Assembly: GCA_963730605.1 (NCBI GenBank)
Contig: CAVSSM010000001.1
Location: 544,001-608,000 of the forward strand
Length of the DNA stretch: 64,000 bases
Direction: 5' to 3'
From: an uncultured Chlamydiae bacterium
GTDB lineage: Bacteria; Chlamydiota; Chlamydiia; Chlamydiales; SM23-39
The notes beneath the pieces were generated by a model that was given only the letters and a program-made list of their open reading frames with translations, did not search any database and had not been told where the DNA came from. A program made the position numbers and the translations under genes. This document shows positions 19,354 through 35,933 of the stretch, piece after piece (positions within the stretch are counted from its first letter, which is position 1; every line of letters starts with the position of its first letter).

Positions 19354-19392
19354 TCAACGGCAACGGTGGACAGCCCAGTCCTTCCCATTCCG

Positions 19393-19414
19393 AAATGTCC
19401 ACCCGGACATTTCT
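19393..19414 (+). terminator. Hairpin after clpX
   Basis: gaaatgtcc-accc-ggacatttc, 9-bp stem with only a weak U-tract. Confidence 0.4.
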
Positions 19415-19429
19415 CCACAAGAATTATTA

Positions 19430-19596
19430 ACCTGAGTTTTGGGTTCATTTGTCTATGAGATTCAAGGATATTTCGAGCATATTTTTGCGCTTTGGAGCCG
19501 AGAGCAATATCGGGACGAGCATATCTTGCCGAGGCGAAAAGTCAAAAAGATGCCGAAAGAAATTGAAGCTCAGGCAAATGAACCCAAAACTCAGGT
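19430..19596. mobile_element. MITE family B, copy 2 (167 bp)
   Basis: Same TIR as copy 1; TSD TATTA; inverted relative to copy 1. Confidence 0.9.
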
Positions 19597-19967
19597 TATT
19601 AGTGTTGTGAAACGAGCCACTCGGCTTCGAAGTCGGCATTTGTCCCGTTTTCGACCAGCGCATCGAAGTTTTTTTGAGTTGCGCGAGCGTGGTCGCGCAG
19701 GTGACAGAGCGCCCAGTTTACCTTGAGGATGTTCTCTCGTGAAATTCTCTATGAATCGTTTGGCGGCGTTGCGTTCACAATCGTTTTTTGCTGCACCGTC
19801 TCCATTTTGAATGATCTCTGGGCAAAGAGGGATTACATTCGACTGGTCGGGATGAACGATGCAAGCGCCTAACATCTGATGATAGTACGTCACCGAACCA
19901 TCTTTGTGTTCCTTTTGGCAGCATTGAGGGCAACAGACATTACCGGAAGAAAATTCTCCCGTACCGT

Positions 19968-20137
19968 GAACCTATCCTCCAATTCTTCACGATCCCTTTA
20001 CGGCACGCTTTTGGGCGCTTTTCGCGCCTCCGCCCTCATAAAGATCACCGTCCCGATATTTACTTCGGGCGGTCGACGACGAAAAATCGCCTCAAAATCG
20101 ACCATAAATGAATCATTAAGAATTGGAGGATAGGTTC
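19968..20137. mobile_element. MITE family E (170 bp, single copy in window)
   Basis: 20-bp TIR gaacctatcctccaattctt; GT duplication; removing it restores the transposase LDGTG motif. Confidence 0.85.
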
Positions 20138-20157
20138 GTCTAAAGAGAGGAGGTATA

Positions 20158-20313
20158 CTGCGACCGCTTAGGTTGTGTGAATTTTGACAGCGGATTTTGC
20201 GTTCCAGTAGCATTGCGGAGATCGCCGCAAACTTCAGTATGTTAGCAAGATCGAGCAATGCGCTGGGGCGCAAAAGGCGCTCAACAAAATTCACTCAAAC
20301 TGAGTGGACGCGG
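20158..20313. mobile_element. MITE family D, copy 2 (156 bp)
   Basis: Homologous to 7580-9100; TATA on both flanks. Confidence 0.85.
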
Positions 20314-21004
20314 TATAATATCCCTCGAAAAACTCGAATCCTTCCAGACATTTCCCCCGTTAAAGTTTGGCGAATATCTTTTTGAATACAGGGCGGATGA
20401 GCCGAGGATCAAGTTCATCCAGGCGTTCCCGCATATAAGTGTCTGAAGGGGGCTGTGAGATGTGATAAAGAGACAACAGATTGTGATCGAGAGTGCCTCG
20501 ATTTTGATCGTATTTGAGCAAGGAGGGAAATTTTAGACCGAAAACAGCGAGGCCGGACATTAACACATCGGTAAATGAACTCAATACTCTATCGGATAGA
20601 TCTCTCGGATCTGAGATTTTCTGAAAGCAACGATGGATGTCCGAGATCACGGTATCGGCACAAAGGGGTTTTCTAACGACAATAGTCATGGAGGCGGCCT
20701 CAATCAAAAATGGAGGCCAGAAAGTTTACGAAAGAAATATTTTCACGAGAAAAAGGGCGGGCGGGAATTGCTGAAATGTAATCGGGTTTTTATTCGCAAG
20801 TTATTGATTAAAAATAATATATGATGGATAAACAATGAGTGCAAAAGGTTTTGCGGGATTAAAAATTTTGAGCATGGTTCGTTTCTTCCTCCTTCCGAAG
20901 ATGAGTCGAAGGCTGGAGGCGCCTGTGGAGATCTCTCGTAGAGAAGGCGTCTTGAGACCTAGGCTTAGCGGCCCAAGGGCCGGGTTTCCCGCCCCGGGGT
21001 GAAT

Positions 21005-21035
21005 AAAAAAAACCCCGAATTTTAAGTCCGAGGTT
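21005..21035 (-). terminator. Intrinsic terminator after the SctE-like gene
   Basis: aacctcgga..ttcggggtt stem followed by a T-run on the minus strand. Confidence 0.7.
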
Positions 21036-21069
21036 CTGTTCTTGGGAGAACGAAAAATCTTAACTATTC

Positions 21070-23478
21070 TTACCCTTGTAGCATCACTTGGCTTGAAGTA
21101 TTGAGGTAATCGCACAGGTGGCTGGCAACAGAGAAGTTGCTCTTCATCTGCTCCTCAAACTCTGCGTTGTCATGCTTTGCCTCTTGCTTCCTTCGGCTAT
21201 CGATCTGCTGCGATAAAAATTTCATGAGAACGTCAAGCACGGTTTGAGTCTTGGCCATAGCGCTCGATGCATCCGCCATATTCATATCAATTTGATACTG
21301 AGCGAACGATGCGCCTGCCTCTGCAGCAGTAGCTATTGGAGCGAGCACGTTTGTAATCTTCATGACGAGCGGGACGAATGCGCCGGCACCCTTTACGCCG
21401 TTCATGAATTGTGCCGCTACGCCCGATCCGCCCATCTGACCGATGAGCGCGAGAATCGCCTGGAGCGCCTCCGCAATTCCTAAGAGAATTTCGTACTCTG
21501 TATTGTCCATCGGATGCTCTTTACGATATGCTTGAAGCCCGTCGACAAGGATATTGGTCGAGCCGACTGCATAGAGCGCAGTAAAGAAGCCCCGCTTTGC
21601 CGCAACCCTCACAGCATCCAGGGTTCCTTCCCTGACCATGACTTTCGCGATGTCTTTTAAGGACATACCCATCGCATCAGCCGCGGCGGCATTGCCCGCC
21701 TCAATGGCCACTTTAGTAATTTGTTTTGTGATTTGATCTGCGGTTACCCCTTCGACTTTTCCTGCGATGCTGATAATCTTAGCAGCGTCTTGGACTGCCC
21801 TTTCGGCAGCATCTTTTGCTGCGGTGATCATCGTTTTCTCAACCATCCGCTCCGCAGCGCCATAACCGCCAGTGGCGGCTTCTTTCACCCATTCAAGGGC
21901 TAGTTTAAGCCCGTTTCTCTCGAAGCTCGCAACGAACACTTTTTTAGCGGCTTGTTCAGCGGCTTTTTCGGCGGCGATCTTGAGGGTCGGCGCCACCATT
22001 TTAGACGCGGTTTCATCGATCGCTTTGCTTACCGCTTCGGTCGCCTCTTCGGTCGCTTGCTTCACGACTTGCGTGAGTTCCGTGGCAACGACTTTCATCA
22101 CGTTTTCCATCACGTTTTTCAAGAGAGCGTCGAGGATTGCTCCTCCGCCCATGGTCACAGCCATCTCCATCACGCCGACGAGCACATCCGCGACGATTTT
22201 GCTCTGTTCCGGAGTGAGTGTATGGCAGTTTTGTATCGCTTTCTCGATCGCATTCGTCAAAAGGTCCAACGCGCCAGTTGCATCGAGTACGATCATCAGC
22301 ACGGCCACGAGCATCGAGCCGATGCCCGGCGCAGCCAACGCGCAGATCGCCTCCAAAGCGTATTTGGCGACTTCCATAAGGATCTTCATGGTCTTCGCAT
22401 ACGCCATGTCTTGCGTGATCTTCACTATCTGAGCTTGGTTATTGGCTACCCCCATCTCGCTGGCAAGGCTCGTCGCCTTGGACATCACAGCTTCGTTTTT
22501 CGTCTTTTCTTTTGTCGCGTTCTGTTGTACGAGCGAAAGAAGCCCGATCACGACGACGAAGAGCTCCATGATTTCCCCGTTCAACTTCATGATCTCTTGA
22601 CTTTTCTCCGTAGGACTCAAGTTTGCATTTAAGATATCGGTCAGCTTTTTGAGGATCTGATCGATCATGGAAGAAACCTGCTGTAAATCGGGAACCAGAC
22701 AAGCCAGCTCAGGCGTAAAATCCGCCCTGATGGCCTGGATGAAACTCATCATATTCGTGGCACTCGTCTTGTTCGCCTCATCGGTTCTGTGGCGCGGGTC
22801 TCCATCCAATAAATAGTCATACCAATGGATGTTATCCTCATCGTTCGAGGCGGCGTTATATTGCGCTTGGTAGCACTTCAGGGCATCGTCTAGATTCGAG
22901 GTGAGGCTCTCCAGGGTACTCGACTCCTCGCCTTCGTCTCCGATCACTTTTTGGATCAGGGCGGAAACGTCGCTGGAATTTGCGCCATCTGGATTTTGGT
23001 TCAAGAGGCTGATTGCGCCTTCGTCTTCTTCAACTATCACTTTTTCATTGAGGGCTTTCACGAGCGCTGTCAGGGTTGTGCTAATGGCGGAGAGATCGGC
23101 GGTGTAGTTCCCCTGGTTGCTGCCGTTGTCGCCAATACCGCCTCCAAAGTCCGCGCTCATGCAATCCTTGATCGCATCAGCAAGTGCGGCAAATGGTGAA
23201 CTGCCGCCGTCGGCATCAACGCTTGCGATCTTGTCCGCCAGAGCCGAGATTGCCGCCTTGTCCGCGCTGATTGCATTGGTCGCGTCGTGGTTGACCGTTA
23301 CCCAAGTAAAAATCCACCATCCATGATGGTTTTGCAGGTTTTTCGACTGCGTCTGGATATCCTTGTTCTTTGTTTCGATCTCTGCAATCCATGTTTCCAC
23401 ATCTTTATAACGCTGCGCCATATCGTCAAGAGCTTTCTGCACATTTTGATCATAATTATTATTTACTGACATATACAC
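21070..23478 (-). CDS. Putative SctE-like (CopB/SipB-type) T3SS major translocator, 802 aa
   Basis: Coiled-coil N-half, central paired hydrophobic segments (ALEAICALAAPGIGSMLVAVLMIVL; VADVLVGVMEMAVTMGGG), Ala-rich helical C-terminus, no signal peptide. Confidence 0.6.
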   Translation of the reverse strand: MYMSVNNNYDQNVQKALDDMAQRYKDVETWIAEIETKNKDIQTQSKNLQNHHGWWIFTWVTVNHDATNAISADKAAISALADKIASVDADGGSSPFAALADAIKDCMSADFGGGIGDNGSNQGNYTADLSAISTTLTALVKALNEKVIVEEDEGAISLLNQNPDGANSSDVSALIQKVIGDEGEESSTLESLTSNLDDALKCYQAQYNAASNDEDNIHWYDYLLDGDPRHRTDEANKTSATNMMSFIQAIRADFTPELACLVPDLQQVSSMIDQILKKLTDILNANLSPTEKSQEIMKLNGEIMELFVVVIGLLSLVQQNATKEKTKNEAVMSKATSLASEMGVANNQAQIVKITQDMAYAKTMKILMEVAKYALEAICALAAPGIGSMLVAVLMIVLDATGALDLLTNAIEKAIQNCHTLTPEQSKIVADVLVGVMEMAVTMGGGAILDALLKNVMENVMKVVATELTQVVKQATEEATEAVSKAIDETASKMVAPTLKIAAEKAAEQAAKKVFVASFERNGLKLALEWVKEAATGGYGAAERMVEKTMITAAKDAAERAVQDAAKIISIAGKVEGVTADQITKQITKVAIEAGNAAAADAMGMSLKDIAKVMVREGTLDAVRVAAKRGFFTALYAVGSTNILVDGLQAYRKEHPMDNTEYEILLGIAEALQAILALIGQMGGSGVAAQFMNGVKGAGAFVPLVMKITNVLAPIATAAEAGASFAQYQIDMNMADASSAMAKTQTVLDVLMKFLSQQIDSRRKQEAKHDNAEFEEQMKSNFSVASHLCDYLNTSSQVMLQG

Positions 23479-23504
23479 CTATGATTATAATTATTTAATA
23501 AATC

Positions 23505-24161
23505 TTATACCGCCAAGACCTGGGGATGCGCCTCGGGCGAAGTGCTTTGAGCGGCCTGTCCTTCTAATGCTTGCAGCAGCTCTGCCGTTGACTGCCGTTG
23601 TTGCTCTTTCGCCATCTTCTCGATGTTATTTTGCACTGATGACAAATCAACCATGAGAGCGGCGTTTTCATTCGTTTCCTTGGCATTCATCTCTTTGAAG
23701 AGGAGGCTTAACTGTTTTACGATCTGGTTCAGGTCAATCATGCTGTCCTTCTCTGATTTGGACTTGCCGCTGCCCCCGACAATCAAGTCGATAAGAGCCA
23801 GCGCCGCATTTTTAAGATCCCCGCTTTCCTGATTGAAATCGGATTTGAGGTGATCTTGGTTGAACTTTCTCAACCCAATGTCGTTTTGCCATATCTTAAT
23901 CTGGGTGTCGCTGTATTTATTCACATTGTGGTACGTGTAGACGATATGGGTCTTTCCATCGGGGCCCATTTCATGATGGGTATCCCGGACTTGCGTCTTG
24001 GCGTTGATATGCGAGAGGTCCCACGCGATCTGGGTGGCGTCGTGGTCAATCCCGTTTTGATCGTTGACGAGTTCATTGTACTCGGCCTCCAGGGCAGCGA
24101 TCGCTTCCTCGACCGCGCTATTGTAATTTTGCGGAGGTGATATATTCGATGATGTTGTCAT
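23505..24161 (-). CDS. Hypothetical helical protein, putative T3SS substrate
   Basis: Ser/Thr-rich start; N-terminus resembles that of the downstream 802-aa protein. Confidence 0.6.
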   Translation of the reverse strand: MTTSSNISPPQNYNSAVEEAIAALEAEYNELVNDQNGIDHDATQIAWDLSHINAKTQVRDTHHEMGPDGKTHIVYTYHNVNKYSDTQIKIWQNDIGLRKFNQDHLKSDFNQESGDLKNAALALIDLIVGGSGKSKSEKDSMIDLNQIVKQLSLLFKEMNAKETNENAALMVDLSSVQNNIEKMAKEQQRQSTAELLQALEGQAAQSTSPEAHPQVLAV

Positions 24162-24329
24162 AAACCTTACTATTCCTGTTTAAACTCTATTCGCCTATAG
24201 CTATATTGTATCAAATAAAAATTATTATTTACACAAAAACCAATCCCTATAATAATTCTGTTTTAATGGGATAATAATTTATTAAATAAAAATATTTTTT
24301 ATGGCATAATTAAAGAAAGGAGTTATAAC

Positions 24330-24557
24330 ATGAGCCTCAAATACCTTGAGAACCTCAAGAAATCGATGGATGCCTCAGAGTGGAACCCCACCCTTCTGAC
24401 GAACCTCCTTGACGAGATGCGCTTTTTCTTCGAAACGCTCCGGGTGAAGCTGGAAAGCGAAGACCCGGCCATGCGACAAGCGGCTGTCGTTGAAATCAGC
24501 GAACTCCGCGCCTTTCTCGATAAGCATCCAGCGATCCGCGAAGCGTTATCCCAATAA
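24330..24557 (+). CDS. Small protein of the KLES.DP paralog family (putative chaperone)
   Basis: Strong RBS aaggag; FFETLRVKLESEDP motif shared with 31813 and 32378. Confidence 0.7.
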   Translation: MSLKYLENLKKSMDASEWNPTLLTNLLDEMRFFFETLRVKLESEDPAMRQAAVVEISELRAFLDKHPAIREALSQ

Positions 24558-24606
24558 TCAGCTCTTTTTCTTCCTTTTTCGAACCCTCGCGCGGTATAAG
24601 GAAGAA

Positions 24607-26127
24607 ATGGATCCAGACGACCTAACAAAAACCCTAGGGCCTCCCCCTTCTAGCGCCGAGCCTCCCCCTAATCCCGATTTTATAGGCCCCTATAAAATCG
24701 AAAGCTTATTGAAACGGGGCGGGATGAGCCTCCTCTATCTAGGCGTTAATCCTACGACCTCCCAAACAGTCGTGATCAAAGTCGTTTTGCCGAAGTACCT
24801 CAAGAACAAAGACGTTTTGACTCGGCTCCTCCGCGAAGCGAAGATTCTCAGCGTCGCTTCCCATAAAAATATCGTAAAACTTTATGACTTAGGAAGATGC
24901 GAACAAGGCATCTTCATCGCTATGGAATATGTCCAGGGGGTGTCTCTCCGCCAGTTCATCAAGACCGAATCCCTGATCCATAAGCGGGCCCTCGAAATCG
25001 TGCTGCAGATCGGCTATGCGCTTGCCCACCTTCACGCCCAAGGCATTATCCATCGCGACCTAAAGCCCGACAACATCCTCATCACCGAATCGGGCGACAT
25101 CAAAGTGATTGATTTCGGGATCTCGGAATTCGTGGAAACGGAGGACCGCTTTCATAAAACCAAAAAGAAAGCCCGGATGGGGACTCCTCATTACATGAGT
25201 CCCGAGCAAAACGAGACCCCCGAAAAAGTCTCCTATGGCACTGACATTTATTCCCTTGGAATCATTGCCTACGAGCTCTATTTTGGGCGGCAAGCGCACG
25301 GGGTCATACAAACAGCCATCCTGCCGAGGGGGCTGCATAAAATCCTCGCCAAAGCCCTTCAGGCCAATCCTGCGAAGCGGTACCAAGACATTATCGATTT
25401 CATCGCCGACCTCTCAGAGTTCCTCAAACACATCGAGGAAGAAGAAAAAAAGGCCACCCCCGAAGAGCTTTTTTCCCTGCTCGAAGAAACAAGGGCCGCC
25501 CTCCAGCCTATTGAGGCGCCAAAATGGGCCGGCATTGAGATCGGGATCGCCCTAAAAGAGGACGCCGAGGGGGGAAGCTACCTAGACTTCTTTCCATTGG
25601 TTTCCAACCGGTATGGGGTGCTATTGGCCAGCCCTGTGAAAAAAGAAGGATCAAATGCCCTATTTCTATCTTCGATGCTGCGGGGCATGGTCCGCATGGC
25701 CGCCTGCACAGTCCCAACAGAACCCGTCCCATTTTTTCTAGACACCTTAAATCGAGCGCTTTTTGCTGAAAAGCATCTCTTTGATTATTCACTCCTCCTC
25801 ATCGATTTGGAGCATGGCCTTCTCGCATTCGGATCTTCAAAACCGGGAGTGCTTTGCCACTTCCCAGAATCGGTCCCAAAGCCTCGATTTTTAGACACGG
25901 AAAACCCACCTTTAGGCAAAAAAGAGGGATCTACCTTTCTTGAGATCAAAGAAAATTGGAAACCGGGGGATCTTTTAATTCTTTCTTCGATCCAAATGGA
26001 AAGCTCCAAGATCCCTCTCGCCGCCGATCTTGTCTTGGACACGAAAAGAGTGGCCGCCAAAACATTTGACGCCCTGACAGCGGGGGGCAGCAAAGAAGCT
26101 GTTCTCATCGCCATTAGAAGGCTATAA
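24607..26127 (+). CDS. pkn5: Ser/Thr protein kinase with degenerate PP2C/SpoIIE-like tail (Pkn5-like)
   Basis: GGMS, VIK, HRDLKPDN, DFG, GTPHYMSPEQ and KILAKALQ..P..RY; length and architecture as I recall for chlamydial Pkn5. Confidence 0.85.
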   Translation: MDPDDLTKTLGPPPSSAEPPPNPDFIGPYKIESLLKRGGMSLLYLGVNPTTSQTVVIKVVLPKYLKNKDVLTRLLREAKILSVASHKNIVKLYDLGRCEQGIFIAMEYVQGVSLRQFIKTESLIHKRALEIVLQIGYALAHLHAQGIIHRDLKPDNILITESGDIKVIDFGISEFVETEDRFHKTKKKARMGTPHYMSPEQNETPEKVSYGTDIYSLGIIAYELYFGRQAHGVIQTAILPRGLHKILAKALQANPAKRYQDIIDFIADLSEFLKHIEEEEKKATPEELFSLLEETRAALQPIEAPKWAGIEIGIALKEDAEGGSYLDFFPLVSNRYGVLLASPVKKEGSNALFLSSMLRGMVRMAACTVPTEPVPFFLDTLNRALFAEKHLFDYSLLLIDLEHGLLAFGSSKPGVLCHFPESVPKPRFLDTENPPLGKKEGSTFLEIKENWKPGDLLILSSIQMESSKIPLAADLVLDTKRVAAKTFDALTAGGSKEAVLIAIRRL

Positions 26128-26138
26128 GAACCTGTACT

Positions 26139-26303
26139 CTCGACTTTGTACAATTTTGTGACGGCATCTCCGAGAGAATCGCTGGCCCTTTTTTCCTTTT
26201 TTTGCTCATAAATAGTGCCTTCGGCTATGAATTTCGCAAAAAAAGAAAAAAATTGCAGAGCGCTTCCTCTGGATCTGCTCGCCAAAAATTGTACAAAGTC
26301 GAG
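26139..26303. mobile_element. MITE family A, copy 2 (165 bp)
   Basis: Inverted copy of 501-665; TSD GTACT. Confidence 0.9.
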
Positions 26304-26571
26304 GTACTAAAACGCACACTACCTGCCTCTTACCCTCCGAAAATATTATTTCTCTATTATTACTTTGTTAAGTTTGTGTATGCTTCCCTTCGCACTAAAA
26401 ACTGGAACTCGGATAAAAAAAGGAGATAAATTAAGGAGCGATCATTGGCGGTGTTGAAGGAACGATCCTCACAGCTCTTACCGCTCTTGGAATCTATGCC
26501 GCTAGAAACTGTGCGAGATCCGGTGAATCGCAACCTTTATTGTCGGAACAGAATATTCAACAGGTCTAAAA

Positions 26572-26599
26572 GAAAAGGGCCGCGGAATTCCGCGGCCCT
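26572..26599 (-). terminator. Intrinsic terminator after the SctB-like gene
   Basis: agggccgcgg-aatt-ccgcggccct with a following T-run on the minus strand. Confidence 0.75.
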
Positions 26600-26624
26600 A
26601 AAGGAAAGAAGAAAAAGAATTCGA

Positions 26625-27917
26625 TTACGCTCTGGATTGCGTTTGAGACGCAAGGGCCTGAGCGAGAGCCTGAGCCGTTTGCCCCATCTCCTGCTGCTTA
26701 GCCTGAGCCTGCTGAGTCCCCTTTTCTTTGACGTCCCCTGTCGCCTGATTGGTTTGCTGGTTCGAGTCGCTGATTGTTTTTTGTTTCTGGGACTCGATCT
26801 GCTTTTCAGACTTCGTGAACCCGCCCAAAGCTTGGCCGCCAGTCTGGCCCCCCTGGGAAATCTGATTCATCAAGCCTCCCCACTGGTTCTGCGCACCTTC
26901 ACACTGTCCGCGCTGATTTTGAAGGCTTTCGATCCATTTATCGGCCTTTTTCTTCGCAGCGGTTCTCTCACCTTCGTCGAGATGCTCTGCGGCTAATTTA
27001 ATCTTCTCATCCCTATCTGCTTGAGCCTCTTGAGAGAGATTGCCGCCATTCTCGTCCTTCTTGGACTTGTATGTTTTAATGGCGTCCTTGGTCATGGCCT
27101 TTTTGAGAGCTTCACTCTTTGAATCCAACCCGACCTTTGTCTCGACTTCTACTTGTTGCTGCTGCACTTCGGCCTGCGCATTTGGGGCCGCTTGGTTTAG
27201 GAGTTTTTCGCTCCCGTCTTGAGCCACGAGCTCTGCCTTCGTTGGCTCATTCAGCATGGCTCTATAGCTTTCCGCATTTTCCAATTCCAAGCTGATTTTG
27301 CCGTACTTGTTCTGGAACATCCCACCGCCTATCTCAGAAGTGCATGAGACGGAATTCCTGATGAATCCGCCCACCGAGCCAAGGAGAGAGAGGCCGCAAA
27401 CGGCGCCGCTCACAGCAAAGCCGATCGCTTCGTTCCTCATTTGATCTCCTTGCGCTTGGGCCGAATCCATCCCGGCATTTACCCAAGATTGGATAAGCCC
27501 CGGTTTATTATCTGTGCCGATCATCGCATTGGCCGAATATACCGTCACTTGGTAACCCTGCTGAGCCATCTCGTTCAAATATTTGATCATGGCGAGAAAC
27601 GACGCGATGATCGCCGCTCCGTAACCGGCGGGAAGGAGCGTTGGGTTGATGGGTGCGGCCGATGTTCCGTTTGTGTCTTTTACGTCAGTCTCTACCGACT
27701 CATTTGACAACTTCGCTTTGGCATCTACTTGCAGAGATAGTTTCAAATCGATTCCTTCTTCTTCGCCGTCCCCTAAAGCGCTTCCCTGCCCTTCATCGGA
27801 ATCCTCATCGTCTTGAGGAAAAGCATAGACGGGCGCCGTCTCATGGGAGCTTGTTCCATTACCCAATGGGTAAAGAAGAAGAGCGTCGGTATTTAAATTT
27901 TCAGGTCTGATTGACAT
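26625..27917 (-). CDS. Putative SctB-like (CopD/SipC-type) minor translocator, 430 aa
   Basis: Hydrophobic segments GAAIIASFLAMI and AIGFAVSGAVCGLSLLGSVGGF; Gln/Ala coiled-coil C-terminus ending QSRA. Confidence 0.55.
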   Translation of the reverse strand: MSIRPENLNTDALLLYPLGNGTSSHETAPVYAFPQDDEDSDEGQGSALGDGEEEGIDLKLSLQVDAKAKLSNESVETDVKDTNGTSAAPINPTLLPAGYGAAIIASFLAMIKYLNEMAQQGYQVTVYSANAMIGTDNKPGLIQSWVNAGMDSAQAQGDQMRNEAIGFAVSGAVCGLSLLGSVGGFIRNSVSCTSEIGGGMFQNKYGKISLELENAESYRAMLNEPTKAELVAQDGSEKLLNQAAPNAQAEVQQQQVEVETKVGLDSKSEALKKAMTKDAIKTYKSKKDENGGNLSQEAQADRDEKIKLAAEHLDEGERTAAKKKADKWIESLQNQRGQCEGAQNQWGGLMNQISQGGQTGGQALGGFTKSEKQIESQKQKTISDSNQQTNQATGDVKEKGTQQAQAKQQEMGQTAQALAQALASQTQSRA

Positions 27918-27948
27918 AGTTCACCTTGTTATTTTTTATATGTTAATT

Positions 27949-28521
27949 TTATACACTAATTTGAGCTTGTACGCTGGATCCATTCGAAAGGAGTCCCATC
28001 ATAGAGTCGCCGGCGTTCGTTGCGGGCTGCCCTGCGGAACTTGCGTTTTGCAGCGCACTCTGGCAAGTTTTGTTCTCTGCATCGCCCGTCGAGGTCTCCT
28101 GTCCAGATTGCGATTGGATCAAGCTCGAGTACTGAGTGATCATTCCATTCCAGACCGTGAGGATGTCTTTATCTTTGTCAATTGTGCTAGATCCGATGAC
28201 CCCTTGCAATTGCGAGATCAAATCCATGCTCCACATAGGGAGGGGATACTTTTTATTTTTTAGGCTGTCAAAAAAAGTATGAAGCGCTTGAGATAAGACT
28301 TCATCGTTGATAGGGTCTTTGGCTGCACTTAGAAGTTTGATGATGTCCGTTTGCAAGACGTTCTGCTTGTTCGGATCCGAATTCGCAGTGAGCCAAGCAT
28401 CCCCGATGTCGAGGGTGCTCTTGCTCCATACATTCGCGTTCGCGTTATCCGTAACCAGCGAATTGCAGTTCGTATTCAGAACTTCACAAACCGCGTTAAT
28501 AAAATTAGATATTGAACTCAT
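27949..28521 (-). CDS. Hypothetical protein, putative T3SS substrate
   Basis: Operonic ORF, rich in Ser/Asn/Gln, amphipathic C-terminus. Confidence 0.6.
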   Translation of the reverse strand: MSSISNFINAVCEVLNTNCNSLVTDNANANVWSKSTLDIGDAWLTANSDPNKQNVLQTDIIKLLSAAKDPINDEVLSQALHTFFDSLKNKKYPLPMWSMDLISQLQGVIGSSTIDKDKDILTVWNGMITQYSSLIQSQSGQETSTGDAENKTCQSALQNASSAGQPATNAGDSMMGLLSNGSSVQAQISV

Positions 28522-28524
28522 GTT

Positions 28525-28971
28525 TTAAATCTCCATAATGATTGATGATGTGAGCGCCAGCAACTGAATCATTGGGCTCTCTAACCTAAATACGTCATCC
28601 AAATTTTGACCCAGAAAGGAGGCGTTCGATTTAATCGTTTCTATGATGTTCTGAACATTTCCCGTATGCAAATCGGCTTCCTTTTGGTCGAGGTCCTTTT
28701 GCACGTTGTCTTGCGCGGCAACCACTGCCATGTGGGGCCCTTGTCCCTGGTGAGGTTTACCCGAAACCCACTTATCCTCAACCTCGACAGACGCCGCCGT
28801 GTCGTTGGCGTAGTTCAAGGAATCCTCTGCGATCTGCTCCATATACGTCTGATTCAAGGTCGAAATGCTGGGCGCTAGTTTGATCGCTTGCGTCGCTGTG
28901 GTCATCTGCGCGCTAAGGTTCGCGTTCTCCTGCTCTCCAATCCCTGATGCAATCCTAAATAAGCCGCTCAT
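28525..28971 (-). CDS. Hypothetical helical protein, putative T3SS substrate
   Basis: Tightly packed operonic ORF. Confidence 0.6.
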   Translation of the reverse strand: MSGLFRIASGIGEQENANLSAQMTTATQAIKLAPSISTLNQTYMEQIAEDSLNYANDTAASVEVEDKWVSGKPHQGQGPHMAVVAAQDNVQKDLDQKEADLHTGNVQNIIETIKSNASFLGQNLDDVFRLESPMIQLLALTSSIIMEI

Positions 28972-28975
28972 CTGA

Positions 28976-29785
28976 TTATCCTTTTGATAAGTTTTGAATG
29001 AGGGAGTTCGTCTCGTCGAGCAGGCTCTTCATCAATGAGCCGAGGAACGACTGCCAGTTTTTCACCATCCCTGTTACTTCCGATACTTCCTGGTTCAACA
29101 CCGCGCTGAAGTTCTGGGTGACCGAAGTCAAGGTCGTGCCCGTATCGGTAAACGCCTTGTCTGCGTCGACCGCCTTGTCTGGGTCGTCCTTCTCACCCAT
29201 TTTGTCGATCATGTCCTTGAAACTAGTCAGGGTTCCATTGCCTTGTGGTTGCTTGTTGTCGTCCGTCCACTTAAAGTATGTTTCGATATTCGTCTTATAA
29301 GCCTGCAGCTGGATGATAATCTGGTCTTTCGTGTTATTGAACAAATTCCCTACTTTCTCATCGTTACTAAACTTATTGATCAACTGGGTGATCGCGCTCA
29401 TCGCATAAGGGATCTGGTCTTTATCCGCGACGCCGCTCGTGTTGTTGATGAGGTTTTGGATGTCGTTGGCAAGCGCCGTGTTGCGGGCGTTGCCGGACAT
29501 TTGGTCGGCGAGGTTCGTCGACTGGTCGTCATAGAGACCTAAAATGTTATCGTGCTGCTTCGGCTGGGTAGCGGTCGCGATCCAAGTGAAAAAGTAAAGA
29601 AGCGCTTCCTCGGGAGTGTGCGTCTTGATAAATTGGCTAAATGCTTCGACGTGCGCTTTATATGCGCTTTGGTCGTCTGTGTATTTCCCAGTATCGTCAT
29701 GAAACTGGTTAGCGCCGTCATTAAACTTGTTAAAATCGGTGTTCCACTGATCTTGCCATCCTTTCTGATTACTCTGTATTGTCAT
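28976..29785 (-). CDS. Hypothetical helical protein, possible tip/filament subunit
   Basis: Long amphipathic C-terminal helix (SVTQNFSAVLNQEV..SLIQNL). Confidence 0.55.
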   Translation of the reverse strand: MTIQSNQKGWQDQWNTDFNKFNDGANQFHDDTGKYTDDQSAYKAHVEAFSQFIKTHTPEEALLYFFTWIATATQPKQHDNILGLYDDQSTNLADQMSGNARNTALANDIQNLINNTSGVADKDQIPYAMSAITQLINKFSNDEKVGNLFNNTKDQIIIQLQAYKTNIETYFKWTDDNKQPQGNGTLTSFKDMIDKMGEKDDPDKAVDADKAFTDTGTTLTSVTQNFSAVLNQEVSEVTGMVKNWQSFLGSLMKSLLDETNSLIQNLSKG

Positions 29786-30178
29786 TTAGATCCTCATATT
29801 CTTTTTTCTTGATTTCTTCTTCCCTTTGCTGACAGGGGCCGGACCCTGAATGGCCTCGAGAGACTGCTGCAGGCGATTCATCCCCTCCAGTCCTTCTGGC
29901 GTAACATGGACCGGATTCACGATATTCTGTAAAAACCGCTGCCCTTCGATGCCGAACGATTCGGCCGCCGCATCAAAGGAATCCCACAAGGCGCGGGTTG
30001 ATGCCTTCAGTTTGTTCTCGTAGGCTTCGCCTCCTTGCTCCCCCTGATTTCGGGATGCGTAAAGGGCCATAAAAGCCTCGAAGGCCTCGCATAAATGGAC
30101 GAGGCGTGGGTTCTTAGAACCCTCTTTGATCGATCTTAGAAATGTTTCAAGTTGCTCTTTGTTCATAATCTTTTTCAC
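29786..30178 (-). CDS. CT635-like putative T3SS chaperone
   Basis: AESFGI..NPVHVTPE.L segment and basic tail KKKSRKKNMRI recall C. trachomatis CT635. Confidence 0.55.
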   Translation of the reverse strand: MKKIMNKEQLETFLRSIKEGSKNPRLVHLCEAFEAFMALYASRNQGEQGGEAYENKLKASTRALWDSFDAAAESFGIEGQRFLQNIVNPVHVTPEGLEGMNRLQQSLEAIQGPAPVSKGKKKSRKKNMRI

Positions 30179-30256
30179 CTTCTATTTAGATATTACATGA
30201 TTTAAATTATATTTACTATATCTTTATATCCCATTAATAAATAATTGCAATTATTT

Positions 30257-30286
30257 ATTTACATGTTATGGCCAATCTGATATACT
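30257..30286 (+). promoter_or_regulatory. Sigma66/70-type promoter
   Basis: TTTACA-17 bp-TATACT upstream of the ATG at 30309. Confidence 0.6.
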
Positions 30287-30308
30287 AACCATAAAGGATG
30301 ATTAGATT

Positions 30309-31816
30309 ATGACTAACCCACCAACCCCCACTACCCCCCCACTAACCCACTACCCACCACTACCCCCCCCACTAACCCACTACCCACCACTACCCCCCCC
30401 ACTAACCCACTACCCCCCACTACCCCCCTCGCTAACACTGCTGTGGTTAACCAGGTAGGGGGGAGCGGCCTCCTCACGGCCCAAGCCGAACAAATAGGCA
30501 CACCCCCCGCCTCGATCCTAAGCAATAAGGGGATCTTGTATACAGAGGTCCGAAAGCCCGACGGGTCCGTTTCGCGAGTTGCCGTCGAGGTCAAAAAAAC
30601 CGACAAGCAGACGGGCGGCATTCTCCGCGAGCTAATGGACCGCGTCGAGAGCGCCGTGAAGAATGTGAACATCTATGTCCGCACCTCGCCAACCTCCTCC
30701 TCTAACCTCCTTGGAGAAGGCATTCCCCACGCACGGAATGTGAGGATCAATTTTACCTCTCTCAGGATCCTTTACGAGGAGAATGACGAGGAAAAGTCGA
30801 TGGCCATCACAGCCATAAAGGACGTAGCTCTTAGAACCCTCCTCCTGGATATCGCTAAAGACATAGAGCACCATGCGACGACCGACCCCTCTATCTCGTC
30901 CAACCGCCCCCTGAACCGCTCTACCCCCTTGGAAATCCAGACGCCGGCTTGGCATAATGCCCATCGGATCTCCGCGGAAGACTATATAAAAAACGGCCAC
31001 GATCACTTAGACGAGAGCCTAAGAGAGGATCTAGACGATACGATTGCTAACCACGCGTTGCCGAAAATCAGGGCCGCCTCCAATTTTGTGCAGAAATTCA
31101 GGGAGCTATTGGAAGGGAAACTTCAAGCGAAACGTCGAGATATGGAGGCAGCTCAGCCGTCTCAAGAACGGGGCGCTAGGCTCGCGTTAAAGAGGCAGAT
31201 CCACCAACTTGAAGAGCTGATCGCGAAAGCAGATAGCCAAAAGCTCGATATGAAAGCCATCTACACAAGCGTCCCTTACGCAAATAACGAGCTGCTAGGC
31301 TTAAATCCTACTGAGCAAATGCAAAGGGCGGACTTCTCTCAAAGCGCGATGCAAGCTGATCTTGCCGCAAATATCGACTCAATCGGGAAGCCGGGCGCCG
31401 CTTTCATAACGGCCTACAGCCAAGACAAGGGAGATCTCCTCATCCATGACCGCTGGAAATACGAAGAGAGGGTCGATGACAGGGGCGGAGAGAAAAGGGG
31501 TCCTTCCGCAGAGGAATTTTTTATCTTTAATATATTGAATTTACGTAATGATAAAGATGAATTCCTCGATGACGCGATGAGTTCGCTCGCTCTTCCGACT
31601 GGCGAAGCGGGGGACTCGGAGGTGCAAACGGCCGTCAGGGAGGCTCTCAAAACGGCTAGGGAAGACGTGCTAATGAAGTACGTCAAGGATATCAGTCGCC
31701 TTGGAACCACCACAACCGACTTACAAGCCCAAATCCAGGTTTTCTATCCTAGACCGCCGGAACCTCAACATCGGACCGTTTCTAAGTTCCAAACGATAGC
31801 GATGGCCCGCCCATGA
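30309..31816 (+). CDS. Putative effector with Pro/Thr-repeat N-terminus (1-nt shift in a poly-C tract)
   Basis: ATG at 30309 with promoter and RBS; adding one C near 30340 puts it in frame with the 457-aa ORF. Confidence 0.65.
30312..30436 (+). repeat. 30-bp tandem repeat, about 4 units
   Basis: Unit actaacccactacccaccactacccccccc, encoding TNPLPTTTPP. Confidence 0.92.
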
Positions 31817-32169
31817 ACTTCGAAGAGCTCCTCCATCAAGCCCTAGACGACCTCTCCTCCAAAGAAAAGCGGGACTGGATGCTCGAAGAGGCGGTTCAGT
31901 TTTTTCTCGAAATGAAGTCCAAAATGGAATCGGGCGATCCTCAACAAAGGGAAGTGGCCAAACAGAACCTCTCGAAAATCCAAGCTCTTCTTACCGCCCG
32001 CAAAAAGGGCCTCTCTGAAATGACGGGCCTAACGCCTTCCCAATTTGACGCTATAAGCCGTCTTGGCAAAGAACACGAGGCGATCTCGGAAGCCAAAGGT
32101 AAACTCCAAGAAATCTTCAAGCAGAAGTCCCGTCCGAACCAACTCAAAAGCGGACGCCTCTCAGCATAA
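31813..32169 (+). CDS. KLES.DP family / CT635-like putative chaperone
   Basis: FFLEMKSKMESGDP and LSEMTGLTPSQF; start overlaps the upstream stop codon. Confidence 0.7.
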   Translation: MNFEELLHQALDDLSSKEKRDWMLEEAVQFFLEMKSKMESGDPQQREVAKQNLSKIQALLTARKKGLSEMTGLTPSQFDAISRLGKEHEAISEAKGKLQEIFKQKSRPNQLKSGRLSA

Positions 32170-32310
32170 TGCAATATACTGATTTACAATCAGTTACAGA
32201 CTGTCCCATTATCCTTCATTTCTAAGGACTTACGTCTTAGCCGATTTGCCTCGATGGGACTAACTCACAAACCACTCAAATAAAGCGATTTACAAAACAT
32301 TAACAATTCA

Positions 32311-32339
32311 TTTACAAATAATTAAAATTTTGGTATAAT
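32311..32339 (+). promoter_or_regulatory. Sigma66/70-type promoter
   Basis: TTTACA-17 bp-TATAAT. Confidence 0.75.
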
Positions 32340-32377
32340 TAGTTTAAATTAAAACAAATAACCGAGAGTATAATAAA

Positions 32378-32743
32378 ATGAATAATAATAACTACCTCGA
32401 AACCTTAAATCAGTTATTCTCAGATTCCGTCCCCTCCAAGGACAAGGTGCTTGGACTCATGGACGACACGATGACGTTTTTCCGCCGGATCAAGACGAAG
32501 CTGGAATCGAGCGATCCGTCTGTGCAAAAGGAAGCGTTCGAAGAGACGATGGAAATGAAGCGGATCCTAGAGACCAAGATGCGGGCGATGGCCGAAACAA
32601 CCGGGCTCGATATGGAACAACTCGCCGCATTAGCGGAAAATACGAATGACATGTCGCTCGAAGATCTGAACGCTCTCGAAACTGCCAAGGCGAAGCTCCG
32701 ACAAATTCAAGAAGAAGAATTTACTACAAAAAATCATAAATAA
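32378..32743 (+). CDS. KLES.DP family / CT635-like putative chaperone
   Basis: FFRRIKTKLESSDP and MAETTGLDMEQLAALAENTNDMSLEDLNALE. Confidence 0.7.
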   Translation: MNNNNYLETLNQLFSDSVPSKDKVLGLMDDTMTFFRRIKTKLESSDPSVQKEAFEETMEMKRILETKMRAMAETTGLDMEQLAALAENTNDMSLEDLNALETAKAKLRQIQEEEFTTKNHK

Positions 32744-32758
32744 TAAAAGGATAATAAT

Positions 32759-33115
32759 ATGATAAACTATGAACCACTCACAGATTTACAATGGCAGCTT
32801 CTCGAGCCGCTTTTCCCGAACCCGGTCAAACGGACAAGGGGCAAACCGCACACGGCTTGGCGCTCGGTTGTGAATTCGATTTTCTACATTCTCTTTACGG
32901 GATTGAAATGGGGATCGCTTCCGAAAGATCCTGCATACGCGACAAAATCGGCCGCCCACCGTTGGTTCGTACTTTGGGAAAAGAACGGATTTCTGAAGCA
33001 GATCGTCGAGACATATCAAAATATGACGAAGATGGGCTCTGACATCAAGCTTCCTCGCAGGCGCAACCGAATGCCCGCAGCAAAGCGCATCCTGGAAACC
33101 GTAGCCGTCGGCTAA
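32759..33115 (+). CDS. Stand-alone IS5 transposase N-terminal DNA-binding domain (DUF4096-like)
   Basis: LTDLQWQLLEPLFP..RGKP..VVNSIFYILFTGLKWGSLP..HRWF..W; own RBS; no DDE domain follows. Confidence 0.8.
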   Translation: MINYEPLTDLQWQLLEPLFPNPVKRTRGKPHTAWRSVVNSIFYILFTGLKWGSLPKDPAYATKSAAHRWFVLWEKNGFLKQIVETYQNMTKMGSDIKLPRRRNRMPAAKRILETVAVG

Positions 33116-33206
33116 ATCCATTCCAATACGGGGACGTATTCGCATCCCCTATCATCTATTCTTTTGTATTTTTTATCCTGTCCATCCTAACATATTGTCC
33201 CCATAA

Positions 33207-33379
33207 GAGGGTGTCTACAAAGTGAGGGAACGCCCGAGTTTTTGGATTATTTTGGCCGCTTTTCGATTTCAAAGCTTGGGTGGCTATATACTGCTGTCGA
33301 TATTGCTCCCAAGTCTTGAATCGAAAATCGGCTCAAAAGAACCGAAAAATCGACAGAACCTCACTTTACAGACACTCTC
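33207..33379. mobile_element. MITE family C, copy 2
   Basis: Near-identical to 14286-14459; TAA duplication. Confidence 0.9.
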
Positions 33380-33504
33380 TAACACAAGTGACTCGGCAAA
33401 AGGCAATTTGAAGTTCTTCTAGGGCCTCCCAGCGGCAAATCTACGCTGCTGCCGACTCTTCAAACACATCCGCTCTTCCCTTTTTTTCCTGTAAAAGGAA
33501 TAAT

Positions 33505-33927
33505 GTGACAGAGGGCCTGTTCAATATGGTTCAGGGATTCTTGGAACAACTCTGCGCTGACTTGTCAATTACCCTGCTTCCAAAATTGAATGAAAAAAAA
33601 AATTATATATTTCGTTTCAGCCCAGGAACTGAAGTTATTTTCGCCGATCTCCACCCGGGCGTTGCGATGCGAGCGAACATTTCCCTTTGCCCCGCGGGGA
33701 GAAGGGAAGATCTGTTCATCTATCTGATGCGGGCGAACTTGCTCGGCCAGGGAACGGGTGGTGCGAGAATCGGTCTGGATGAGAAAGAAAGCAACTTGAC
33801 ACTCTTGCTTGGCTTACCCTATGAAATGAATTATCATGCATTCAAGGAAGCCTTCGAAGAATTCGTCAACCATCTCATATATTGGCGGGATGTTGTGGCA
33901 AAATTTGAAAAAAATGAACCGGTTTAG
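33505..33927 (+). CDS. scc4: CesT-type class I T3SS chaperone (CT663/Scc4-like)
   Basis: LMRANLLGQGTGG..IGLD motif; lies directly upstream of cdsD. Confidence 0.85.
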   Translation: MTEGLFNMVQGFLEQLCADLSITLLPKLNEKKNYIFRFSPGTEVIFADLHPGVAMRANISLCPAGRREDLFIYLMRANLLGQGTGGARIGLDEKESNLTLLLGLPYEMNYHAFKEAFEEFVNHLIYWRDVVAKFEKNEPV

Positions 33928-34103: not shown

Positions 34104-35933
34104 ATGCCAGCGCATCTGATCGCAGAAGAAGGTCCTCTCCGTGGACTTTTCTTAAATCTGGAAGAGGGAGTTGAGTGGATCTTAGGGCGAGACCCCGAAA
34201 AGGCCACATTCGTCATCGAAGACGAAACCGTCTCTCGGAGGGCCGCCCGTTTAAGCCGCAGCCCGGAAGGGATCCATCTTGAAAACCTAAGCCGCGTCAA
34301 TCCCACATTAGTGAATGACGAGCCAGTCGATGGCGTTGTCCTGCTCAAAGAAGGCGACCGGATCCAGGTAGGCCATACGATTTTTCTTTTTTCGGAAGCA
34401 AAAATCCCTGAAATGGGTCAGCCGCCGAAGGGGGGATACGACGATATTTTCGGCTCTCTGGAAGAAGAGGCGCCGCAAGTTGGGAGCGAAGCGCCCAAAA
34501 AGCGGGAAAAGAAGAAAAAGAGCGAGCCGGCCAACGCATACGACACGATTTTCGAGGATACCAACGAGGGAGTTGAGCCGCTGCCGTTCAACCTCCTCGC
34601 AGAGACACCTTTCCTATTGAAAGTGATCTCAGGCCCGAATGCGGGGGCCGAAATCGGAATGGAAAAAGGAAGGACGTACACCCTCGGCAAAGACCCTGAT
34701 TCCTGCGATATCGTCTTCCAAGATTTAAGCGTCTCGCGCAACCACGCGCGCCTGTCGTTGAGCGCGGACGGCGCGATGGAGATCGAAGATCTCGGCTCTA
34801 AAAATGGCACCGTCGTCAATGGAACGCCCATCACCGAAAAGAAACCCATCACGACGCAAGACATGGTCGCATTGGGGACGACGATCTTTTTGATCATCGA
34901 CCGGGAAGCTACCCAAGAGACCATTTATTCGCCGATGGTCCCCGCCTACGAGGCGCCGAAAGCAGAGGCGCGTTTGGCAGAGGTTCCCGCCGAGAGCCAG
35001 GCCGAAGAAAAGAAGGATTGGAAAAAAGTGCCGATCCCGACGAAGTATTTGATCGGCGCCGCTGCATTTGCCGCGATCTTCCTCATCGTTTTCTTGAGTT
35101 TCTTTTCCCTTTTCAAATCCAATCAGGTCGAAGTCGTCCGCAAGGAACCCGTCTCGCGGATCCAAAAGGCGCTTGCTAAATTCGAAGGGATTCAATTCTC
35201 TTTCAATCCGGCCAGCGGAAAACTCTTCCTTATAGGGCATGTGCTGACATCTGTCGAGGCGCAAGAGATGCGATTCCGGATTAGCGAGATCGATTTCGTG
35301 AGGGCATTGGAAGACAATGTCGTCATCGATGAATATGTAGACAAGATGATGAACGACATCTTAAGCGGAAACCCAGAATTTCGGGGCGTCGCCATCCAGT
35401 CTCCCAAAGCGGGGAAATTCATCGCCACCGGCTATATCGATACCAATAACACCGCATCGCTGCTTGGCGAATATCTCTCCGTCAATTTCCCTTATCTCGA
35501 CCGGCTGGAAAACGAGGTCGTCGTCGGGGAAAACCTGAATGCTCAGATCCAGGGGCTTCTTCTGTCGAAAGGATTCGGCGCGCTCTCCTTCCAATATGCG
35601 AACGGCGAGGTAGTGCTGGCCGGAAGTTATAGCGACAAAATGGGCAGCCAGTTCCAAGAGCTCCTCAAAGAGATCGATAGAGTGAAAGGAGTGAGCGGAG
35701 TCAAGAATTTCGCAGTCGAGACAAACCCAAACCAGGCTGCGATCGATATCTCAGGACAATTTCAAGTAACGGGAAACTCTCAGCATGAAGGGAAAGGGTT
35801 CAGCGCTATCCTCAATGGAAAAATTTATACGATTGGCAACCAGGTGAGCGGAATGGAGATTACTGAAATCGACGAGACGACGATTCTACTTGAAAAAGAA
35901 GGAATAAAATATAAAATCAACTACACCCGGTGA
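34104..35933 (+). CDS. cdsD: T3SS inner membrane ring protein with two FHA domains
   Basis: Two GR/GK..VSR..H/A FHA motifs, one TM helix, BON-like periplasmic part. Confidence 0.92.
   Translation: MPAHLIAEEGPLRGLFLNLEEGVEWILGRDPEKATFVIEDETVSRRAARLSRSPEGIHLENLSRVNPTLVNDEPVDGVVLLKEGDRIQVGHTIFLFSEAKIPEMGQPPKGGYDDIFGSLEEEAPQVGSEAPKKREKKKKSEPANAYDTIFEDTNEGVEPLPFNLLAETPFLLKVISGPNAGAEIGMEKGRTYTLGKDPDSCDIVFQDLSVSRNHARLSLSADGAMEIEDLGSKNGTVVNGTPITEKKPITTQDMVALGTTIFLIIDREATQETIYSPMVPAYEAPKAEARLAEVPAESQAEEKKDWKKVPIPTKYLIGAAAFAAIFLIVFLSFFSLFKSNQVEVVRKEPVSRIQKALAKFEGIQFSFNPASGKLFLIGHVLTSVEAQEMRFRISEIDFVRALEDNVVIDEYVDKMMNDILSGNPEFRGVAIQSPKAGKFIATGYIDTNNTASLLGEYLSVNFPYLDRLENEVVVGENLNAQIQGLLLSKGFGALSFQYANGEVVLAGSYSDKMGSQFQELLKEIDRVKGVSGVKNFAVETNPNQAAIDISGQFQVTGNSQHEGKGFSAILNGKIYTIGNQVSGMEITEIDETTILLEKEGIKYKINYTR

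Follow-up and report, generated by a model that had tools for sequence, protein, structure and literature searches.

A divergent CopB/CopD-type translocator cassette with a candidate needle-tip module and no adjoining LcrH/Scc2 gene in an uncultured chlamydia

The stretch of DNA analysed here, hereafter the window, comprises 64,000 nucleotides of contig CAVSSM010000001.1 (positions 544,001 to 608,000; assembly GCA_963730605.1) from an uncultured Chlamydiae bacterium (Chlamydiales, SM23-39). Upstream of its type III secretion system (T3SS) injectisome operon lies a set of genes that we read as a translocon cassette devoid of an LcrH/Scc2 chaperone gene. A802 and C430 would form the pore, F269 the needle tip, E148 and D190 possibly tip or adaptor components, and G130 possibly a chaperone. 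We give this reading as a whole a probability of about 0.62. Judged from their sequences, A802 and C430 are very divergent orthologues of CopB/SctE and CopD/SctB, respectively. The pair very probably works as a translocon, secretion and pore formation being predicted from this assignment.

The genes of the cassette on the minus strand are:

29786..30178, minus strand: G130, 130 aa, small charged protein ahead of F269
28976..29785, minus strand: F269, 269 aa, candidate SctA needle-tip protein
28525..28971, minus strand: E148, 148 aa, acidic, second of the F269-E148-D190 trio
27949..28521, minus strand: D190, 190 aa, acidic and hydrophilic, third of the trio
26625..27917, minus strand: C430, 430 aa, minor translocator, divergent SctB/CopD-position orthologue from profiles
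21070..23478, minus strand: A802, 802 aa, major translocator, divergent SctE/CopB orthologue from open reading frame (ORF), hydrophobicity, model and profiles

An ATG two codons into the A802 frame (23472) gives the 800-aa form held in the database and is probably the true start.

A802 and C430 are linked to the SseC-type translocator pair

The earlier note on this DNA, made from the sequence alone, had described the two large proteins as having a translocator-like hydrophobic architecture. Kyte-Doolittle profiles bear this out, with hydrophobic stretches at about residues 296-321, 374-411 and 662-682 of A802 and at 93-111 and 164-186 of C430. The A802 model (predicted local distance difference test, pLDDT, 61.2) consists of helices throughout: an N-terminal bundle, predicted with confidence, a central hydrophobic region and a long C-terminal helix. 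Stretches 374-411 and 662-682 have helices on both sides. All 28 A802 family members contain a hydrophobic stretch with a mean of at least 1.6.

The proposed homology to translocators is upheld by profile-profile links and by profile matches across the order. Against 11 long LcrH-linked proteins taken from around SseC matches, the A802 family profile scored 95.3% (E 2.3e-8). The C430 family scored 90.5% against the genes behind those proteins (E 1.3e-6, 84 columns). The other 22 of the 24 forward pairs stayed at or below 3.3% and the 24 reversed pairs at or below 6.2%. With an intermediate set of sequences, A802 reached 98.6% over 159 columns, its hydrophobic core being aligned, and C430 reached 97.2%. 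Searching the genome's ORFs with profiles of this set put A802 at the top in one case (E 7.9e-4) and C430 in the other (E 0.25).

Order-wide profile searches covered 150-151 genomes, G193 being unscored in several of them. The A802 profile matched in 33 of 151 genomes, and Pfam SseC in 46 of 150, the host's own genome being unmatched. In the 13 non-self genomes with both A802 and SseC matches, counted by hand from two tables, the two fell on the same ORF in 9, on the gene just upstream in 2 and elsewhere in 2. The C430 profile matched in 31 of 150 genomes, directly behind an A802 match in 9 of the 13 non-self genomes that had both. In three g87 genomes of 1.0-1.2 Mb, the sole A802-profile match is a frame of 494-505 aa, followed directly by an SseC-positive gene of 442-448 aa; two such upstream ORFs have weak NCBIfam translocon-protein matches (E 0.0017 and 0.0016). 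This order is the copB-copD arrangement given in the available part of PMC4760673, according to which CopB and CopD of C. pneumoniae both have an SseC domain and belong to one operon.

Several observations weigh against the assignment. Pfam SseC, LcrV, EspA and IpaD match none of the 28 A802 members, and PF04888 finds nothing in the host's genome. The strongest link of A802 to the LcrH-linked proteins (95.3%) covers just 74 C-terminal columns. Profiles of the LcrH-linked pair did not retrieve A802 or C430 from the 9978 genome ORFs, and most members of the intermediate set had entered it through earlier hits of the same profiles. Only 8 of 28 C430 members reach a hydrophobicity of 1.6, and 16 reach 1.4. 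The A802 model, which is poor, gave no translocator match: Foldseek returned nothing at E 0.001 and none was among 50 VIA rows, the structure search finding only generic bundles for residues 5-263. The profile links to the SseC pair, the shared position described below and the hydrophobicity nevertheless lead us to consider A802 and C430 as divergent SctE and SctB orthologues.

The cassette is conserved in order and position

The host assembly is 2.2 Mb and 83% complete; 103 genomes in 53 genera were sampled from its family. A first F269 profile matched in 28 of the 103 genomes, from 7 of the 53 genera. A word-based protein search found two non-self relatives of A802, and a single-sequence A802 query matched in 9 of 36 other family genomes and in none of 24 genomes of other families. 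The fetched loci share a common plan, in which G130-F269-E148-D190-A802-C430 run on the strand opposite to H457. In relatives, s121-type genes and the gene of a helix-turn-helix (HTH) protein, sometimes also the kinase gene, flank the cassette.

Six loci had been excluded beforehand as duplicates or partial, leaving 32 copies. The order F269-E148-D190 is fixed in all of them, and G130 lies directly ahead in 30. The gene next after D190 is A802 in 21 copies and C430 in 11, and C430 directly follows A802, within one fetched locus, in at least 16 of the 32. In the window, the A802/C430 pair is split and its order is reversed with respect to copB-copD. Because an A802-type gene directly follows D190 in 21 of 32 copies, this split is a derived rearrangement: the separation of the two genes reported in the earlier note is true of the window and secondary in the family. 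The block G130-F269-E148-D190, which precedes the translocators, recurs in other chlamydial families. Gene maps of relatives agree with the earlier proposal in that the translocators are accompanied by a tip-like module and by small proteins resembling chaperones.

Among the 28 cassette genomes, 11 have the cassette beside scc4-cdsD and 9 beside other genes, while in 8 it meets contig ends. Repeated copies occur in G007, G114 and G112. Tandem or inverted repeats of up to three copies are seen in L021, L065-L066 and L078, and one genome (G213:C15) has up to seven F269-like matches. Host-range diversification is a possible explanation of these repeats and multiple F269-like genes. In the closest relative, an additional gene is inserted between the kinase gene and C430 (L026:5244-6407); its 387-aa product has segments resembling leucine-rich repeats and, at the C-terminus, a hydrophobic stretch.

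Synteny extends to other families. Other environmental chlamydiae have the order long helical genes - LcrH - SseC-positive gene of 670-920 aa - CopD-like gene - scc4 - cdsD, that is, the same pair in the same slot between tig-clpP-clpX and scc4-cdsD. They differ in the genes upstream of the pair, which encode about 380-960 aa where the cassette has G130-F269-E148-D190. Of 20 fetched SseC loci, 11 have one or two LcrH genes flanking, 3 are of the four-gene second type described below and 6 are without LcrH. Scc4-sized, mostly cdsD-like neighbours are present in 11 and clpX in 7; scc4, cdsD and clpX neighbours were recognised by size, order and N-terminal sequence. The earlier note had contrasted its proposal with plain orthologues of known cop loci. 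This is what the pair is in part, being orthologous and located in the copB-copD slot. In L120 (9323-17643), LcrH is followed by several consecutive genes for long hydrophobic proteins, which look like an expanded SctE array.

No LcrH/Scc2 gene accompanies the cassette

A class II chaperone gene beside the translocators is, to our knowledge and in textbooks, near universal. The earlier note had reported none in the locus, and a profile of 20 LcrH proteins indeed picks out none of the 2558 ORFs from the window stretch and the cassette loci. The loss of scc2 from this locus is real, which suggests that translocators may persist without a neighbouring class II chaperone gene.

The scc2 (LcrH_1) operon of Chlamydiaceae, scc2-CT577/CPn0810-copB-copD, also encodes a major and then a minor hydrophobic translocator, and the A802 profile matches the gene in copB position. 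In contrast, a tetratricopeptide repeat (TPR) chaperone gene is missing from the cassette, A802 exceeds its counterpart by about 300 residues and has no direct SseC match, and three hydrophilic genes plus a small charged gene precede the pair. The corresponding operons are lcrG-lcrV-lcrH-yopB-yopD in Yersinia and pcrGVH-popBD in Pseudomonas. They too contain a small helical gene, a tip-like gene and then the major and minor translocator genes. In the cassette, however, lcrH is replaced by two extra hydrophilic genes, and no sequence homology to LcrG or LcrV was detected.

The earlier note had suggested looking for a separate translocon locus, and one is present on contig C3. The genome has one strong LcrH match over the TIGR02552 cut-off (C3:11860-12264, a seed member of the profile). 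Its gene belongs to a separate run, 233 aa - LcrH - 318 aa - 179 aa (C3:11014-13754), with the same four-gene layout as operons of the CTL0238-lcrH-copB2-copD2 type. The 318-aa protein matches SseC-positive proteins. The C3 locus is distinct from the cassette, and in profile-profile comparison its proteins gave only a weak link to A802 (20.7%) and none to C430. The genome contains two translocator sets, as do C. trachomatis and C. pneumoniae in the available parts of PMC12095286 and PMC4760673. The former, as far as its available part goes, places expression of the second C. trachomatis translocon operon in reticulate bodies and that of the scc2-copB-copD operon in elementary bodies. By analogy, the cassette may be the entry-stage set and the separate LcrH locus the intracellular-stage set, a division of labour for which we see even chances.

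The same four genes are found in six relatives. In the host's genome they are adjoined by a TamB-like gene and mlaE-like genes, and the 233-aa protein is the top, although weak, genome match of the DUF720 profile (E 0.15).

A separate LcrH locus makes chaperoning in trans possible. This is the first of four rival explanations, which rank, in falling order, as chaperoning in trans, a filament, effectors and a non-translocon island. It holds that the translocon is an ordinary CopB/CopD one whose chaperone gene was relocated, that the LcrH of the second locus serves both pairs, and that the small helical proteins are unrelated regulators. LcrH was surveyed in 11 cassette genomes, the host's own and 10 chosen for a completeness of at least 94%. 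Seven have one LcrH, always in an X-LcrH-318-179 locus; together with the over-cut-off LcrH of the host, this favours chaperoning in trans and tells against the translocon-cassette reading. The remaining four (G087, G084, G098 and G007; 94-99% complete, fragmented) gave only weak matches to other TPR proteins or none, which argues the other way within the limits of fragmented assemblies. G130-type genes, moreover, remain directly ahead of F269-type genes in several other families, and relocation leaves the fixed F269-E148-D190 trio unexplained. We regard chaperoning in trans as the most serious rival, though an unlikely one.

F269 is a candidate needle-tip protein

F269 is hydrophilic and encoded upstream of the translocators, as SctA proteins are. 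Its model (pLDDT 90.2) starts with a 48-residue helix and ends with one of 67 residues, between which lie a helical bundle and a short hairpin; helices include 81-114 and 202-268. In a structure search against 48,161 chains, the two longest alignments among the best 50 rows were with SipD (196 residues, Z 8.1, root-mean-square deviation (rmsd) 5.7) and IpaD (193 residues, Z 7.6, rmsd 6.0). A second search superimposed model residues 59-261 on SipD 128-343 (Z 8.6, rmsd 4.7). FlgL, from hook-filament junction structures, aligned with Z 8.6-8.9 over 174-184 residues, up to the C-terminus. The model is thus collinear with SipD/IpaD and FlgL to its C-terminus over 155-199 residues, with Z 7.6-8.9, rmsd 3.6-6.3 and 7-16% identity, values not above the helical background.

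Language-model neighbours from the Atlas, which serve as leads only, point in similar directions. For F269 (0.89-0.91, low recognition scores) they are DUF720, LcrV, Effector_1, EspA and IpaD/SipD clusters; for D190 (0.87-0.90, low recognition score) they are DUF720, EspA and LcrV.

These similarities have to be set against the following. Foldseek, which the earlier note had proposed for the models, found nothing for F269 at E 0.001, as for A802. STAT coiled coils and designed bundles score as high as SipD or higher on F269 (Z up to 9.8; STAT5 9.7, residues 1-176), although with shorter cover. The Z scores with SipD, IpaD and FlgL are below the level that the tool asks for helical proteins. 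Pfam matches to LcrV, T3SS_TC (IpaD) or EspA are absent from all 32 F269 members and all 36 distant relatives, and SseC likewise matches none of the 32. DUF720 was rejected as the identity of the F269-E148-D190 trio, with at most 1.9% in profile comparison with 33 DUF720 (PF05302) proteins. PDB sequence searches with the F269 and A802 profiles gave coiled-coil noise. One entry, 2p7n ('Pathogenicity island 1 effector protein'), which we take to be an IpaD-family tip, was reached with E 0.48 over the C-terminal 53 positions; it is not counted as evidence. On balance, F269 is probably an SctA needle-tip protein. E148 and D190 could well be its partners, as further tip or adaptor subunits, with odds a little short of even.

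The F269 family comprises 181 representatives at E 0.001 (clusters at 50% identity, public data). At E 0.001, a 32-row F269 profile matched in 5 of the 151 genomes searched across the order; at E 0.01, a 75-row profile matched in 50 of 150. A match of the wider profile lies within 6 kb upstream of an A802 match, on the same strand, in 16 of 32 genomes. Among the 23 flanking loci examined, 10 contain G130- or s121-like genes and 4 E148-like genes.

DUF720 was not found in the host's genome and matched in 1 of the 103 family genomes, below the cut-off. In other environmental families, genes of about 390 aa located just ahead of LcrH (L116:11955-13136; L119, L123, L124, L126, L127) occupy 6 of the first 7 places among 2912 ORFs compared with the DUF720 profile (69%, E 4.4e-5). 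This hints that DUF720 proteins are tip- or filament-related. Links of F269 to these genes are weak: the first profile gave 1.4-3.3%, and the wider one 12-27%, the likeness lying in the C-terminal part.

F269 aligns with FlgL as well as with SipD, and this is the main argument for the second rival, in which the pair is a translocon and F269, E148 and D190 form a filament of EspA/SseB or flagellar-junction type with adaptor subunits instead of a single cap. The EspA and DUF720 clusters among the Atlas neighbours of D190 and F269 would suit it, as would the tandem F269-like genes of some genomes (seven matches in G213). Yet neither sequence nor profile gave any EspA or DUF720 match, and the longest alignments are with SipD/IpaD, whose N-terminal helical extension F269 shares. 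A filament appears somewhat less probable again than chaperoning in trans.

A third possibility is that F269, E148, D190 and H457 are translocated effectors co-transcribed with the translocators. N-termini rich in S/T/N/Q/P and fast evolution would also fit effectors, and DUF720 proteins, an Atlas neighbour, reportedly feature in papers on secreted chlamydial substrates. An order fixed in 32 of 32 copies, together with a place immediately before the SctE gene in several families, is better explained by structural parts, which makes effectors improbable. H457 itself is of no known family and may be a secreted substrate or a regulator. One H457 homologue (L076:11662-13395) carries a fused NADAR domain (E 8.6e-18), a combination that would suit an effector.

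Finally, it is very improbable that A802 and C430 belong to a mobile island and serve as hydrophobic effectors, of the inclusion membrane or otherwise, instead of translocators: the lack of a direct Pfam SseC match, the duplications, the unlinking from scc4 in 9 of 28 genomes and the transposase-like fragments left of the cassette would agree with it, whereas the specific reciprocal profile links to the SseC pair, the shared position and a genome-like GC content (0.49-0.51 for the locus, 0.497 for the contig) do not. The last two rule out a foreign-island origin. The special "island" of the earlier note is therefore better described as the counterpart of the copB-copD locus in the clpX-to-scc4 slot of other chlamydiae.

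G130 and the proposed mechanism

The four small paralogs announced in the earlier note form one family, s75, s118 and s121 being connected by BLAST and G130 by a profile-profile link of 96.9%. Its members are small and charged and have no hydrophobic stretch, with 98-149 aa in the G130 copies. In a word-based protein search, the G130 profile retrieved nine proteins, none with an informative name. Tip genes accompanied by small all-helical chaperones (LcrG-LcrV, CesA-EspA, SseA-SseB) are established in Yersinia, Pseudomonas, enteropathogenic Escherichia coli and Salmonella pathogenicity island 2, according to the available part of PMC13466201. By analogy, G130 might be an LcrG/CesA-like cytoplasmic tip chaperone. 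We hold the chances for and against to be equal, binding to F269 being a prediction. More generally, a chaperone role is inferred for the small proteins.

In the translocon-cassette reading, the CdsF needle would be built from the genes next door, and secretion of the middle substrates would follow. F269 would sit on the needle end as a cap, like SipD, IpaD and LcrV, perhaps together with E148 and D190. A802 and C430 would then pass through the needle, insert into the host membrane and open a path for effectors. G130-family proteins would meanwhile hold the tip proteins in the cytoplasm. A bolder version, which we consider doubtful, combines a TPR-chaperone-free translocon, a three-protein F269/E148/D190 tip derived from the flagellar junction/SipD fold, new small helical chaperones and control by a domesticated transposase, in a large environmental branch.

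Which protein forms the needle tip of chlamydiae is unsettled. The CT584 orthologue lacks, in its crystal structure, the coiled coil common to tip proteins, and the structure 'does not support' a tip role, in the available text of PMC3260263; a 2026 review, in its available part, counts CT584 as an effector chaperone (PMC13466201). With F269 there is a concrete candidate that folds well and keeps its place ahead of the translocators in many lineages. If the assignment is true, F269 would be the first SctA of chlamydiae to show a canonical tip fold. The F269 profile has no match in five small g87 genomes, so F269 does not settle the tip of Chlamydia itself.

In the literature searched, which left aside subscription papers and supplements (e.g. 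Figure S4 of PMC2878342, T3SS gene clusters), we found no account of an LcrH-less cassette or an F269-type tip. The available parts of PMC5451489 and PMC8242063 do not describe the cassette. In the Waddlia genome, SycD genes adjoin hypothetical proteins (PMC2878342, available part). The core, from its sequence orthologous to CopB/CopD, would then be a known system, the missing chaperone gene and the tip-like trio being undescribed as far as searched.

Selection and candidate regulators

Ratios of nonsynonymous to synonymous substitution rates (dN/dS) were estimated by the Nei-Gojobori method for one genome pair, the host and its closest relative. They are 0.59 for A802, 0.62 for C430, 0.68 for D190 and 0.58 for F269. 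Lower values were obtained for G130 (0.14), s121 (0.17), HTH (0.13), kinase (0.17), scc4 (0.16) and cdsD (0.11), with s75 at 0.38 and B218 at 0.28. The split fits host-exposed and cytoplasmic roles, without proving them. Two values break it and count against this picture, those of s118 (0.60) and E148 (0.38).

The HTH protein of the earlier note is present and is, more exactly, a stand-alone N-terminal domain of IS5 transposases (DUF4096, E 7.9e-19). The 14 copies compared are 109-126 residues long, share 34 invariant columns and have no DDE catalytic domain. Its likeness to a longer insertion sequence copy in the genome is confined to the N-terminal 55-66 residues (three loci compared). Because the domain stands alone, the remainder of the transposase is missing and selection is purifying, hth118 is likely a domesticated DNA-binding protein of transposase origin. 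The second domain of the kinase is SpoIIE-like, with a weak match (E 5.4e-4), and the kinase is linked to the cassette in part of the relatives. That HTH protein and kinase regulate the locus is a tentative suggestion.

Other features of the locus

The other features of the locus and its right-hand border are:

21009..21037, minus strand: terminator-like hairpin after A802 (hairpin scan)
23505..24161, minus strand: B218, 218 aa, truncated paralogue of the N-terminal ~190 residues of A802
24330..24557, plus strand: s75, 75 aa, short member of the G130/s121 small helical family
24610..26127, plus strand: Ser/Thr kinase, C-terminal part weakly matching SpoIIE (PP2C)
26576..26599, minus strand: strong terminator-like hairpin after C430, 10 pairs, 9 of them G-C
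30443..31816, plus strand: H457, 457 aa, divergently transcribed, cassette-linked, with an S/T/N/P-rich start
31813..32169, plus strand: s118, 118 aa, small helical paralogue
32378..32743, plus strand: s121, 121 aa, small helical paralogue
32759..33115, plus strand: hth118, 118 aa, stand-alone IS5-type N-terminal domain (DUF4096) without DDE domain
33505..33927, plus strand: CesT-family chaperone (scc4 position), first gene of the injectisome operon
34104..35933, plus strand: cdsD/sctD

The ORFs named in the earlier note, and terminators after both of its minus-strand units, are recovered in the ORF list and the hairpin scan; H457 is an addition to those ORFs. The scan gave 31 sites against 20.6 +/- 5.5 in shuffles; it is the position of the two terminators, and not this count, that supports them. 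Four proteins had been described as helical. The middle-sized B218, D190, E148 and F269 have no hydrophobic stretch (best 19-residue Kyte-Doolittle means 0.89, 0.68, 1.24 and 0.45, respectively); helicity is shown by models for F269 and, outside this group, for A802. In a library scan, kinase and HTH were the only proteins of the locus with an informative Pfam/NCBIfam match, none being obtained for A802, B218, C430, D190, E148, F269, G130, H457 or the small paralogues.

B218 matches the N-terminus of A802 (E 8.4e-6 among 17 proteins; 2.3e-4 genome-wide with a profile) and was found only in the window and the closest relative. By sequence it is a leftover duplicate of that region.

To the right, the genes are those of the chlamydial injectisome operon, with matches to a CesT-family chaperone, SctD/CdsD, DUF5398, CdsG, a YscO-like protein and SctQ, and CdsF at 36199-36441; the names scc4, cdsE and cdsF used here are labels that we presume to apply. 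Left of A802, a frameshifted tig, clpP, clpX and transposase-like fragments were recognised from translations. The tig, clpP and clpX genes (window 16361-19435) and the T3SS ATPase gene (37554-38868) are split into several frames and intact in relatives; the breaks are probably assembly indels. The gap between clpX and A802 (19439-20707) contains the transposase-like fragments and inverted repeats (19425-19601, 19968-20137 and 20154-20317). Upstream of H457, a C-rich tandem repeat with units of ~30 nt occupies 30305-30436, and the H457 frame of the closest relative runs further upstream. Nested inverted repeats between the HTH gene and scc4 (33206-33380) are a possible binding site or RNA structure.

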